Assembly: GCA_938074525.1 (NCBI GenBank)
Contig: CALJEX010000040.1
Coordinates: 18-64,017, forward strand
Length of the DNA stretch: 64,000 nt
From: an uncultured Gammaproteobacteria bacterium
GTDB lineage: Bacteria; Pseudomonadota; Gammaproteobacteria; UBA4575
Direction of reading: 5' to 3'
Each line of letters starts with the position of its first letter. The first letter of the stretch is position 1. The translations under genes and the position numbers were made by a program. The notes under the pieces were generated by a model. That model was given only the letters and a program-made list of their open reading frames with translations. It was not told where the DNA came from and did not search any database. Of the stretch, positions 13,327-18,451 are shown one piece after another.

Positions 13327-15255
13327 TTGCCAATCGAAAATTATTTCTCCTCAAAAGGAGAACTCGCTCAAAAAATCAAAGGTTTTAAGTATCGTCCTCA
13401 GCAAGTTACGATGGCGAGTGCTGTGCATCAAGCGATTAACGATTCAAGTACCTTAGTGGTTGAAGCAGGCACTGGTGTTGGTAAAACATTCGCGTATCTA
13501 ATTCCCGCGATGTTGTCTGGTAAGAAGGTTGTGGTGTCGACAGGCACACGACACTTGCAAGATCAGCTATTTTATACAGACTTGCCGCTACTGCAGCATG
13601 CAGCCTCGCTCTCTATTAATGCCTCTATCCTCAAAGGCCGCTCAAACTATTTGTGTAAGTACCGCTTTGAACGATTTGAGCATGATCTTGGCGATAATCC
13701 AAGACTGACAAGTGCTTATAGTGAAGTGAAAGATTGGTCGCTTGTCACTAAAACAGGCGATGTTGCCGAAGTGAATGAATTGTCAGAGCAATCTGAAATT
13801 TGGCAGCATGTAACTTCCACGCGCGATAATTGTTTAGGTGGCGAATGCCCAGATTATAATAAGTGTCACGTGCTGAAAGCACGAAAGCGTGCGCAAGAAT
13901 CTGATCTTGTCGTAATTAACCATCATTTATTGTGTGCAGATCTAGTGCTTAAAGGAGAAGGCTTTGGTGAACTGTTGCCAAGTGCCGATGTTTTTGTTCT
14001 GGATGAGGCGCATCAGCTGACGGATGTGCTGCCAAATTTCTTTGGTAGTAATCTTAGTAGTCGCCAGTTGCAAGATTTGGTTGCAGATATTAGTAAGGAA
14101 TGTTCTAAGCTGACGAGTAATATTACATCAATCAGTAAAAGTTATTATGCGGTGCTAGATGTAGTGGAGAAATTTTATAGTAGCGTTGCTAAGAAGATGA
14201 AAGAACAGCGTGAGCTATGGCGCGATGTTATTAGTGATAAAACTGTTCATGCTGCATATGAGAAATTAACATCGTGTCTGCTTGTGTTGGAAGATCAATT
14301 AGCTGCAATAGGAGGAGAATCTCCTGGTTTGGCCCAGTCGTATAAGAGAGTCAGTGAAATTAATGGTTTGTTAGATGAGTTTAAAAGCGTTGATAGCAAA
14401 TTTGTTCAGTGGATAGAGTTAGGTCGAAGACGTTTTCGCTTGGGCAGTGTTCCATTGAATGTGGCAATCCCTTATCAGAAAGCAATTCAAGAATACAAAT
14501 GTGCTTGGATTTATACTTCAGCTACCCTCACGGCTAAGCAAAGCTTTAGTCATTTTACGGAGCAATTAGGTCTACAAGATTCGGAATGCGTTATGTGTGA
14601 TAGCCCATTTGACTATGCAGGACAATCTCGTTTGTATTTGCCCTCAATTAATCTTCAACCAAATGAACAGGGTTATACTGCAGAAGTTGTAAAAAGATCG
14701 ATGCCATTATTGAAAGCGAGTCGAGGAAATGCATTTATGCTATTTACTAGTCATAAGGCATTAAATCAAGCTGCTGATTTGTTGAAAGATAGTGCGTTTA
14801 ATGTATTGGTTCAAGGTGCTGCAGCCAAGCGAGAGCTTTTGAAGCAATTCCAAGAAGCTAGTAATTGCGTGTTGTTAGGTACGCAAAGTTTTTGGGAAGG
14901 TGTAGATGTTAAGGGTCAAGGTCTACGCTTAGTTATCATCGATAAACTGCCGTTTGTTTCTCCAGCTGATCCGCTAGTACGTGCGCGTTCAAAAGCATTA
15001 GAAGAGGCGGGAGAAAATCCATTTATGGTCTACCAAATTCCCCAAGCGATTTTAAATCTTAAGCAAGGGGTGGGGCGTTTAATTCGTGGCGAGCAAGATT
15101 GTGGTGTGGTCGTGCTGATGGATCCTAGGTTAAAATCTAAAGCCTATGGAAAATCATTCTTAAAAAGTTTGCCACCGATGACAATTAGTGAAGACGAAGC
15201 ACAAATCAAACAATTTCTAGATATTATTCATGACAGTGAAACTGCTGGGTATTGA
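13327..15255 (+). CDS. yoaA: DinG-family (Rad3-like, DEAD_2) ATP-dependent DNA helicase, YoaA-type
   Basis: 642 aa. N-terminus GELAQKIKGFKYRPQQVTMASAVHQAI aligns with E. coli YoaA. Walker A AGTGVGKTFAYLIP, a 4-Cys cluster region and a DEAH box (VLDEAHQL). Adjacent to tsaB (yeaZ) as in E. coli. Confidence 0.88.
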   Translation: MPIENYFSSKGELAQKIKGFKYRPQQVTMASAVHQAINDSSTLVVEAGTGVGKTFAYLIPAMLSGKKVVVSTGTRHLQDQLFYTDLPLLQHAASLSINASILKGRSNYLCKYRFERFEHDLGDNPRLTSAYSEVKDWSLVTKTGDVAEVNELSEQSEIWQHVTSTRDNCLGGECPDYNKCHVLKARKRAQESDLVVINHHLLCADLVLKGEGFGELLPSADVFVLDEAHQLTDVLPNFFGSNLSSRQLQDLVADISKECSKLTSNITSISKSYYAVLDVVEKFYSSVAKKMKEQRELWRDVISDKTVHAAYEKLTSCLLVLEDQLAAIGGESPGLAQSYKRVSEINGLLDEFKSVDSKFVQWIELGRRRFRLGSVPLNVAIPYQKAIQEYKCAWIYTSATLTAKQSFSHFTEQLGLQDSECVMCDSPFDYAGQSRLYLPSINLQPNEQGYTAEVVKRSMPLLKASRGNAFMLFTSHKALNQAADLLKDSAFNVLVQGAAAKRELLKQFQEASNCVLLGTQSFWEGVDVKGQGLRLVIIDKLPFVSPADPLVRARSKALEEAGENPFMVYQIPQAILNLKQGVGRLIRGEQDCGVVVLMDPRLKSKAYGKSFLKSLPPMTISEDEAQIKQFLDIIHDSETAGY

Positions 15256-15910
15256 GACTGCTACCGAGGCTTGTTCTGCCGCCGTGCTTGTGGATGGCGA
15301 GGTGGTTGAACGATTTGAAGTCTCGCCACGTAAACATAACGAACTCATCCTTCCTATGTGTGAGGCCGTATTAGCAGATGCCGGTATTTCTTTAAAGCAA
15401 TTAGACGGTATTGCCTTTGGCTGTGGTCCTGGCGCGTTTACTGGAATCCGTATTGCTGCAAGTGTGACTCAGGGGATTGCGCTAGCCCATGATTTGCCTG
15501 TCGCCAGTATCTCAACATTAGCGAATCTCGCCTATCAGGCTGATGAAGTTGAGGTGGATGAATTGATAATGCCGGCGATAGATGCACGCATGGATGAAAT
15601 ATATTGGGGTTTATATAAGAGAACACGAGATAGTGTCGAGCTTGTTGCTGAGGAACGAGTGCAACTGCCTGGTGAGGTATCTGTCGTTGATAGTATTTCA
15701 TGTGGTCTAGGTACGGGATGGGGTGCTTATAAGCAGGTTCTACAGCAAAGAGTAAACAGTGATAGAGAAAATATTATTGAAGATGCCTTGCCCCATGCAA
15801 AAGTTACTGTGCAACTCGCAAAAAATAAATACCTTAGTCAGCAAATGGTAGATGCAATGCATGCGCTACCAGTGTACTTGCGTAATCAAGTGGTACATCA
15901 GAAAAAATGA
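15230..15910 (+). CDS. tsaB: tRNA threonylcarbamoyladenosine biosynthesis protein TsaB (YeaZ)
   Basis: 226 aa. N-terminus LLGIETATEACSAAVL is typical of TsaB. Overlaps the yoaA 3' end by 26 nt. Confidence 0.85.
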   Translation: MTVKLLGIETATEACSAAVLVDGEVVERFEVSPRKHNELILPMCEAVLADAGISLKQLDGIAFGCGPGAFTGIRIAASVTQGIALAHDLPVASISTLANLAYQADEVEVDELIMPAIDARMDEIYWGLYKRTRDSVELVAEERVQLPGEVSVVDSISCGLGTGWGAYKQVLQQRVNSDRENIIEDALPHAKVTVQLAKNKYLSQQMVDAMHALPVYLRNQVVHQKK

Positions 15911-16329
15911 GTATGGCTCCATTTCATCTGGCATTTCCTGTCACTAATCTTGCTGCTGTTCGTGAGTTTTATTGTTCGGCATTAAGGTGTGACATTGGCA
16001 GAGAGGGCGATCGCTGGATTGATTTCAACTTCTTTGGTCACCAAATCACTGCGCACTTAGATGGAACTGCTGTGCATCAACCAAGTCGAAATCAAGTGGA
16101 TAATAAAGCAGTGCCTGCGAGACATTTTGGTGTGATTTTGGATTGGAATGCATGGGATGAATTGCTTGCACGCATAAAGTCATATGATATTGCATTCTAT
16201 ATTGAACCGTATACTCGGTTTGCAGGAGAAGCAGGCGAACAAAGAACTTTTTTTATTCAGGATCCAAGCGAAAATTTTTTAGAATTTAAATGTTTTCAAG
16301 ATAAATCTTATATATTTAGAAAAGAATGA
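15907..16329 (+). CDS. VOC-family (glyoxalase/bleomycin-resistance/dioxygenase fold) protein
   Basis: 140 aa. The FHLAFPV N-terminal beta-strand motif is typical of VOC proteins. Translationally coupled to tsaB (ATGA). Confidence 0.6.
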   Translation: MSMAPFHLAFPVTNLAAVREFYCSALRCDIGREGDRWIDFNFFGHQITAHLDGTAVHQPSRNQVDNKAVPARHFGVILDWNAWDELLARIKSYDIAFYIEPYTRFAGEAGEQRTFFIQDPSENFLEFKCFQDKSYIFRKE

Positions 16330-16331
16330 TC

Positions 16332-16694
16332 ATGAAGAAATTAATACTACTATCTTTAATGTTGAGTACTTCAGTGTATGCGCAACCACCACAGGTGGTG
16401 AAAGCAGAAGCTAGCCTAAAAACAAATCAATTATTTGATGTTTAGGTAACAATACGTCATCCCGATACAGGTTGGGATCACTACGCGAACGAATGGATTG
16501 TGTTAGACGGCGATGGTAAAGAGATTGCTAAACGGACCTTATATCATCCTCATGTGAATGAGCAGCCATTCACGCGATATGTTAGAGATATAGTGATTCC
16601 AGCAGATGTTAGCAAAGTAACAATAACGGCAAAATGTAATAAAGGGCATGATTCAAAGCCCTATGTTCTTATGGGTAAAGAAAATAAGCAGTAA
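16332..16694 (+). pseudogene. Small secreted superoxide-reductase-like (desulfoferrodoxin Fe-domain-like) protein interrupted by an in-frame TAG at 16443..16445
   Basis: ATG at 16332 gives a signal peptide MKKLILLSLMLSTSVYA, then QPPQVVKAEASLKTNQLFDV, then TAG, then (same frame) VTIRHPDTGWDHYANEWIVLDGDGKE...TAKCNKGHDSKPYVLMGKENKQ. The segment HPDTxxDHYxxEWIxL plus C-terminal CNxGH resembles the SOR centre-II pattern (IPHPNTTEHHIRYIEL ... CNIHGLW). The track shows only the post-stop piece (16500..16694). Confidence 0.45.
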
Positions 16695-16731
16695 AGTTTT
16701 TCAGGCTTTACTGCTATGTCTCTTATTTGCT

Positions 16732-18451
16732 TTAGTGTCTCTTTTTTTTCACAATGAAGACATTTTTTTGCAGTTCATTGCCGACATTGGTATTGCGCTT
16801 AATTATTTTAGCTAAAGTTGTTTTCTTGATTTTTCTTAGCTCCTTACCCCAAAAATTGTTTTCATACCAGAATCGATCGCCATCACGTAGTCTTTCAAAC
16901 TGATCTTTAAGAGTAGTGTAAAAAACTTCGCCAACCAAGGCATCGTCTATATGATCTTCTGCTAAACCACCTACCCATAAATCGACATGATCAACACTGT
17001 CGTAAGCATTCTCTAGTCTTGCTTGAACTTCTGGGTTAGACGATATTTCTGAGAATGATACTACTGGCTCTAAGCCTAACTTTTTGCGGGTGTCATTATA
17101 GCTGAGTAGGCCGTGATCACGACCTCTTTGGATATTTAATGAAGCTAAATCAAAGCCACCTTTGCCGGGTTGTCCAAATAAGAAATTCCTAACATCGTCT
17201 ATCACGAATATGTCCAAGTTTTGGCAGGTTTGTGATGCTAAACCTCTTAGTATTGGTCCGATATTGCCTTGTTCTGTTAACAGGTGTGGTGCAAAAAATG
17301 CTTCACGCAGTGAGATGTGTCCATGGCGTGTTTCTTTGCCATTCCGATTTAATCTCATAATTCTTAGTGATAATAAACTATGACCTAAGCGATATGCGGC
17401 AGTAGAGAATTCATTTGCTATGCGGGCATCAACGTCAGGCTTGTAACCCTCGTACTTAGATAAGGCATGTTTGCCTAAAAGGACCGGGATGAATTCATTG
17501 TAAGTAATGACTTGCATTTGCGCTGCAACAATACGTCTGGCGCGTTGATAAATTTCATCACCTGACAGGTGATGATTTTTTTGTTTAATCTTTTTGGCAA
17601 GGCGATTGTGTTCGCGAACAAACAAGGTATGCATAGTAGTTAAGCCTATTTGTTCATTTGCACGCACATCACCCGCTAAAAATAATTTGTCACTACTGCC
17701 GCCGGCATTGCTTAAGCCAGCAGTATTAAAAGGTAGTAACCCTTTTTTACTCGTTTTAAGTTTGCCTCAGCCATTCATTTTACGCAGTTCTATAGCACGA
17801 TCTTCATCGGATCCATATACGTTTGAAGCATCTATCCAGCCTGTGATTTCATTTAACTGTTGTCTGGGGTTGGAGCCGGGTTCATAAATTGACCTATTAA
17901 AACTCATGACGACACTTCCTGAGCTGTCTGGGTCGAACTGCGGGTCCCCGCTAGGAATTAAAATTGGTGCTAATTCTTCGGGACTAACGCCATCTGTAAT
18001 ATCTATATCGTGATCTAGGAATTGACCCCATTGCCATAGAAAATCGCTAGCGTGTTTTTTTGTTTGTGTTGAGTTTGTTTGTGACATGACAGCATTGCTA
18101 ATGTCTCTTGGGTTAGGTCTATCAATGCCTGCCATCGCGCTAGATTGATCGCTGTACCCCGCTTCTGTTGTACGAATCAATTCTATATCGGCAGCATTCA
18201 TTTCATGGTCACTCAGATTGTTATTGCTACCATCAATGGTTCTATAAAATATTTCTGAATGATTTTTTTTTATATTTATTATGATTTCTTTCAATTCTTC
18301 TAACAGGAGATGAATTAGGGTTAGACATGGTGTGATCAGCTTGATTTAGAAGGTCTTCGGTAGGGGAGATTCCTTCTGAACTGTCTGATAATGCGTGCGT
18401 TGCATATATTGATATGCATAGCGCGGCTACGCTTATAGAAATATATTTCAT
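16732..18451 (-). pseudogene. Bacterial animal-type heme peroxidase (peroxidase-cyclooxygenase superfamily), disrupted by a +1 frameshift in an A9 run and an in-frame TGA
   Basis: Three track ORFs (18242..18451, 17767..18294, 16732..17667) concatenate into one protein of about 570 aa. It has a signal peptide MKYISISVAALCISIYATHALS, then RTIDGSNNNL, then the distal heme pocket FLWQWGQFLDHDIDIT. Further on are VDASNVYGS, LLPFNTAGLSNAGGSSDKLFLAGDVRANEQIGLTTMHTLFVREHNRLA, the proximal His in YRLGHSLL, and DLWVGGLAEDH. All are hallmark animal heme peroxidase motifs. Frame change at T9 18263..18271 (A9 on the coding strand). In-frame TGA at 17767..17769. Confidence 0.78.
18263..18271 (-). repeat. 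A9 homopolymer (T9 on the plus strand) at the peroxidase frameshift site
   Basis: With A8 instead of A9 the reading becomes continuous: ...RRIERNHNKYKKNHSEIFYRTIDGSNNNL. Confidence 0.7.

Follow-up and report, generated by a model that had tools for sequence, protein, structure and literature searches.

A probable recent null allele of a gene for an exported Ig/FN3-like putative metalloprotein on an uncultured gammaproteobacterial contig

The 64,000-nucleotide stretch of contig CALJEX010000040.1 analysed here (the window), from an uncultured Gammaproteobacteria bacterium, carries at 16326..16694 on its forward strand a small gene whose reading frame is interrupted by an amber codon. Read directly in the sequence, this is a single frame that opens at ATG 16326 or ATG 16332 and runs through MIMKKLILLSLMLSTSVYAQPPQVVKAEASLKTNQLFDV, a TAG at 16443-16445 and VTIRHPDTGWDHYANEW...CNKGHDSKPYVLMGKENKQ to the TAA at 16692-16694; with its alternative starts it translates as M(IM)KKLILLSLMLSTSVYAQPPQVVKAEASLKTNQLFDV, TAG and then VTIRHPDTGWDHYANEWIVLDGDGKEIAKRTLYHPHVNEQPFTRYVRDIVIPADVSKVTITAKCNKGHDSKPYVLMGKENKQ. 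The TAG is codon 40 when counted from ATG 16326 (37 codons precede it when counted from ATG 16332), and 82 codons, 41-122, follow. An earlier reading made from the letters alone (the original prediction) had described a signal peptide, the TAG and a continuing frame, and all three are present where it had placed them. Its start at ATG 16332 also stands, but not the distance of 5 nt that it gave from the stop of the upstream VOC gene: ATG 16332 begins 2 nt past that stop (TGA, 16327-16329), and a second in-frame ATG, 16326, overlaps it (ATGA). That reading had pointed out that only a 3' fragment of the gene is shown in the open reading frame (ORF) track; mechanical calling yields just a 39-aa 5' ORF and a 64-aa GTG-started 3' ORF (16500..16694); a product restarted at GTG 16500 would be devoid of the signal peptide and of the BC-loop motif described below. 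In our judgement the locus is probably a recent null allele of a conserved single gene for an exported, immunoglobulin (Ig)/fibronectin type III (FN3)-like putative metalloprotein: a C-to-A change at 16444 would have turned Ser40 from TCG into TAG, translation would end after the signal peptide and about 20 further residues, and no functional protein would be made in this genome.

A search with the stop-repaired protein returned 692 homologues, each a single protein of about 115-140 aa that covers both halves, which settles in favour of a single gene the question of whether the halves are normally separate. The best match, P0001 (122 aa), has the same sequence except for a Ser at the TAG position. 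Its contig (L001, 3,119 bp, from the Logan assembly of run ERR9287632) aligns without gaps to 14464..17582 of the window and is 99.87% identical over 3,119 bp, with four mismatches: one at 15883, synonymous and within tsaB; one at 16063 in the VOC gene (Gly53 in the window, Arg53 in L001); one at 16710, inside an intergenic hairpin; and one at 16444, where L001 has TCG and the window TAG. The near-identical DNA thus holds an intact orthologous allele that differs at the stop codon, and the gene is likewise intact, with Ser40, in a second assembly from ENA (P0250). Relatives at 66-81% identity encode Ala (GCx) at codon 40, and the observed codon states are consistent with a path from GCG to TCG to TAG. 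The search for intact homologues that had been proposed earlier has therefore revealed the replaced codon. The part of the gene beyond the stop (16446..16694, forward strand), which comprises codons 41-122 and the TAA and encodes nearly the whole beta-sandwich domain, shows zero differences from the intact L001 allele; the lesion is therefore very recent, or else a consensus artefact. In all this the locus resembles an ordinary nonsense pseudogene or null allele: one base change turns Ser into a stop, the intact allele is otherwise the same, no signal for recoding accompanies the change, and nothing of substance sets the locus apart. The sole oddity is that the adjacent gene is also disrupted.

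That neighbour is a convergent animal-haem-peroxidase gene on the reverse strand (16732..18451; Pfam PF03098 on both fragments), which carries two lesions. The first, at 17767..17769, is an in-frame TGA that may have arisen from TCA; the corresponding residue in eight intact homologues is Ser or Thr ('MNGSGKLK'). The second is a +1 frameshift, one additional A in the A9 tract (18263..18271) that lies after the signal-peptide ORF and before the catalytic domain; with A8 in its place the gene would again encode 'NHNKYKKNHSEIFYRTIDG', at homologue length. Intact peroxidase homologues are 571-589 aa long and up to 84% identical. The poly-A tract is not conserved in two related loci (L003 and L087), and a conserved phase-variation switch is unlikely.

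These lesions bear on whether the TAG is genuine. It may instead be an artefact of sequencing, assembly or consensus calling, or a variant from a minority strain, in an organism that truly has TCG and makes the full-length protein. The window proteins map to a single 66,479-bp NCBI/ENA contig that probably belongs to a metagenome-assembled genome, the gene is intact in two other assemblies of the same species-level population, and the peroxidase frameshift sits in a homopolymer, a typical place for error. Against this, three disabling lesions lie within about 2 kb in two adjacent genes, a clustering that argues against random sequencing error; a scan of the 64 kb for pairs of ORFs in one frame with a lone stop between them brought up no further disrupted gene; and the C-to-A and C-to-G substitutions are not homopolymer-type errors. 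We consider an artefact or minority variant unlikely, with some real chance of being right, and the pattern suggests that both genes are truly decaying in this lineage or strain.

The original prediction had offered readthrough or a dead gene as the two outcomes, and the comparison favours the second. Programmed amber readthrough, suppression or recoding, by which the full-length protein would be made from the TAG message, would account for a frame perfectly kept past the stop, and the base right after the TAG is a G; a recent lesion, however, explains the kept frame equally well. Codon 40 is an ordinary Ser codon in the allele of the same species and encodes Ala in other relatives, and none of the relatives compared retains a stop there. 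Within the window TAG is a genuine terminator rather than a reassigned codon: it ends 6 of the 51 long ORFs, among them the conserved housekeeping genes valS (919 aa), ispF (155 aa) and eno (425 aa), at lengths exactly as in a syntenic relative (L002). No tRNA gene and no Rfam match was found in the 64-kb window. We regard functional recoding as extremely improbable. On this account there is nothing unusual in the amber codon, which marks a newly arisen null allele or possibly a variant of the assembly; annotation should present the locus as a disrupted gene and not as a 3' fragment of 64 aa.

The start codon and Sec-type signal peptide (MIMKKLILLSLMLSTSVYA) occupy 16326..16382 on the forward strand, with cleavage predicted after Ala19. 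The original prediction had called this signal peptide textbook, and its parts can be seen directly as MKK-LILLSLMLSTSV-YA|Q: a positive n-region, a hydrophobic core and an A-x-A-type cleavage site. Across an alignment of 118 homologues (A1), whose residues are numbered after P0001, a Sec-type signal peptide starts every member and Ala is found at -1 in 115; a twin-arginine motif or lipobox was found in none of the 118. By these signals the intact product would be a Sec-exported periplasmic protein of about 103 mature residues, members of the family in general having about 100. Neither Pfam nor NCBIfam matched the intact protein, and Pfam gave no significant match among the 118 aligned homologues.

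The family is large. An exhaustive profile search collected 1,667 clusters (at 50% identity) with E<=1e-3 and 1,174 with E<=1e-10; all homologues are unnamed and unannotated, and a literature search with signature peptides of the family found nothing. Among the hits examined in a genome scan, members reside mainly in marine Proteobacteria, including Rhodobacteraceae (Ruegeria, Tateyamaria, Sulfitobacter), Thiotrichales (Cocleimonas, Leucothrix, Thiomicrorhabdus), Sedimenticola and Colwellia, with scattered matches in other groups. The residues invariant in the alignment are V41, H45, D47, G49, W50, H52, W57, R70, L72, H74, P75, H76, E79, Q80, P81 and R84, and they are nearly invariant across a wider set of 147 diverse representatives, all pairs of which fall below 50% identity. 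A few of these representatives are fusions, to a double rhodanese (P0454), an EB_dh haem-binding domain (P0477) or HEAT repeats (P0465).

An AlphaFold model built with the family alignment (predicted local distance difference test score, pLDDT, 88.1; predicted template-modelling score, pTM, 0.77) folds the protein into a seven-strand, Ig/FN3-like sandwich with strands A 23-31, B 37-44, C 54-61, C' 66-71, E 82-89, F 97-104 and G 113-117, and it matches Ig/FN3 domains at 5-13% sequence identity to the query. The conserved polar residues lie in the loops of the model. Placed from the model, the BC loop (16458..16481, forward strand) carries the motif H45-P-D47-T-G49-W50-D-H52, invariant or nearly so in both the alignment and the wider set, and from it come H45, D47 and H52. 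The C'E loop (16545..16577, forward strand) carries H74-P75-H76-V-N-E79-Q80-P81-F-T-R84, the most conserved stretch of the family in the alignment, with H74, H76 and E79. Position 104 and His107/108 fall at the end of strand F and in the FG loop, which in the window reads C104-N-K-G-H108 (16635..16649, forward strand). Here the alignment is more permissive: of the 118 homologues, 71 have Cys and 47 have Asp at position 104, and of the 147 representatives, 27 have Cys and 108 have Asp there; His stands at 107 or 108 in most members; and the mature protein is free of any Cys in 45 of the 118. Typically, FG loops in the family read (H/R)-D-S-V-H-G-(W/Y)-G, and the C-N-K-G-H of the window is a clade-specific variant, its clade having C-x3-H.

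By Ig/FN3 topology the BC, C'E and FG loops would lie at one pole of the sandwich, which suggests a metal site. A pole bearing four His, an Asp, a Glu and an Asp or Cys is most simply a metal-binding site, a proposal to which we give about an even chance. The intact product would on this basis be a small periplasmic metalloprotein whose one pole binds a metal ion and which acts alone, as a redox or detoxifying enzyme or as a metal carrier. Several points weigh against this interpretation of the locus. First, both metal binding and the spatial clustering of the conserved residues are predicted. Second, a tandem-duplicated member (P0373) has lost H45, H52 and H74 and keeps EQPFTR; part of the motif may therefore be structural rather than ligand-binding. 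Third, no known metal regulator or transporter is consistently adjacent among the family loci examined. Lastly, the TAG itself could be the assembly or consensus artefact, or the minority variant, considered above.

The family profile also drew a weak match (E 0.0056) to residues 73-117 of PDB chain 4czd_B, the sirohaem decarboxylase AhbB, where the pattern H..TGW.H.A..W.V...H.H recurs as in the invariant residues of the family. We take AhbB to have a different fold and on that belief judged the match to be probably due to chance.

The original prediction had read the BC- and FG-loop motifs as an echo of the ligands of superoxide reductase (SOR) and had proposed either a divergent periplasmic SOR-like or cupredoxin-like fold or something new. 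Our results show a large undescribed family and do not support SOR membership. Of the profile and structure check that had been suggested, the structural part gave a likeness, the seven-strand Ig-like beta-sandwich being a generic fold shared with SOR, and the profile part gave none. In Pfam scans of the repaired protein and the 118 homologues, PF01880 was not matched, the best single member reaching E 0.044, below any threshold; the family profile search retrieved no SOR from the PDB sequences at E<=10; and hhalign returned a probability of 0.3% for A1 against an alignment of 42 1Fe-SORs (A2, from a search seeded with the P. furiosus SOR). The EKHVP-type N-terminal His was already reported missing by the original prediction and is indeed absent, and its supposed Cys ligand, Cys104, is Asp in most members. 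The SOR centre, by comparison, is Fe(His)4(Cys), with four conserved His and an essential axial Cys (PMC3116461). On the lack of a PF01880 match, the hhalign result and the Asp at position 104, we rule out membership of the SOR family. These searches found no sequence or profile similarity between the family and one-iron SOR/neelaredoxin (P. furiosus SOR 1DO6, Giardia SOR 4D7P), and the family's C'E-loop His-x-His-x-x-Glu motif does not align to the SOR profile. Export differs as well. Most SORs lack a signal peptide, and that of the TAT-SOR class is a twin-arginine translocation (Tat) signal (PMC3116461); the signal peptide of the present family is of the Sec type.

It could still be argued that the intact protein is a very divergent Sec-exported SOR, with an Fe centre formed by His45, His52, His74/76, Cys104 and His108, that feeds H2O2 to the adjacent secreted haem peroxidase. 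It has the fold class of SOR, whose chains rank with the best single-domain structure matches; the window's clade has its C-x3-H in the FG loop; and the candidate ligands fall in the BC and FG loops, equivalent to those in which SOR places its own. The peroxidase gene is the convergent neighbour in six of the eight close loci with downstream flank, and here both genes are knocked out. The peroxidase is absent, however, from all 153 other family loci, including the close-clade loci L002 and L086 with downstream flank, and L002 keeps the small gene in its absence. Together with the negative profile searches and a Cys that so many members do without, set against Fe(His)4(Cys) (PMC3116461), this makes a divergent SOR highly improbable.

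The exported Ig/FN3-like protein that we favour might nonetheless work in a manner loosely like that of SOR, its metal sitting at the corresponding pole of the shared fold. The apparent decay of both genes gives a weak hint that the small protein and the peroxidase act together in this clade. In its fullest form the proposal would be that the family constitutes an unrecognised class of Sec-exported mononuclear metalloproteins (four His, Asp, Glu and Asp/Cys), catalytic or metal-handling, that in this clade act with the neighbouring haem peroxidase on reactive oxygen species; we hold this to be a speculative and rather unlikely extension. If true, the joint role would explain why both genes decayed together, and their joint decay is in any case one testable hint of a functional link.

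Another possibility is that the protein is a SoxZ-like or other sulfur-handling periplasmic module, whose ligand would be a sulfur species and not a metal. Pfam scans of the 118 members brought up no match at E<=1 to SoxZ (PF08770), which partners SoxY as a sulfur carrier; Paracoccus SoxZ reached a probability of 0.8% in hhalign, and the family's invariant His/Asp/Glu set did not align to it. On these results we reject homology to SoxZ. No SoxY or sox cluster was present among the neighbour clusters of 80 genome loci and 20 Pfam-scanned co-directional neighbours, which comprised DUF599, PgpA, VOC, housekeeping genes and others, and a rhodanese is adjacent in only one of 162 loci. We consider a sulfur-handling role very unlikely. 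Generic bacterial Ig/FN3-like domains (GH2 Ig-like, FN3 modules, ApaG) likewise have no detected sequence-level similarity to the family, and the family differs from them in that its domain stands alone, is exported and bears a strictly conserved polar cluster.

The more useful by-product of the disrupted allele is the family itself, large and undescribed, with a confidently predicted fold and a strikingly invariant His/Asp/Glu cluster. Structural and metal-binding studies would find in it a clearly delimited target, and it is a candidate for entry as a new domain family; its novelty would lie in a new ligand signature in a small Ig-fold periplasmic putative metal-binding protein.

In the window the small gene ends a co-directional string, dinG-tsaB-VOC-gene, in which stops and starts overlap or abut, and the locus shows no marked GC anomaly as a signature of horizontal transfer. 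Its upstream operon partner, the VOC/glyoxalase-family gene (15907..16329, forward strand; Pfam PF00903), lies directly upstream in all nine close gammaproteobacterial clade loci and in one Thiotrichales locus, and in none of the other family loci. Across the 162 family loci the neighbourhoods are heterogeneous. A DUF599 membrane protein is directly upstream on the same strand in about 25 Rhodobacteraceae loci (within L004-L082) and nowhere else, a pairing of two families of unknown function; PgpA and a retropepsin-like protease flank the family gene in two loci; and a thioesterase, SSB, dUTPase, cytochrome c' and others each adjoin it once. No neighbour context is frequent enough for a pathway to be assigned, and the variation between lineages fits a protein that works on its own. 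In one locus a secreted rhodanese lies 1 nt upstream (L056:17-946), and in another a TauE exporter overlaps the gene by 4 nt (L057:4159-4911).

Between the small gene and the convergent peroxidase gene lies a hairpin (16687..16715, forward strand), terminator-like on a simple scan, in which AGCAGTAAAG pairs with CTTTACTGCT and whose core stem is perfect over 10 bp. The single-nucleotide difference from L001 at 16710 falls in this stem, where the window has A and L001 has T, and the A makes the pairing in the window perfect.
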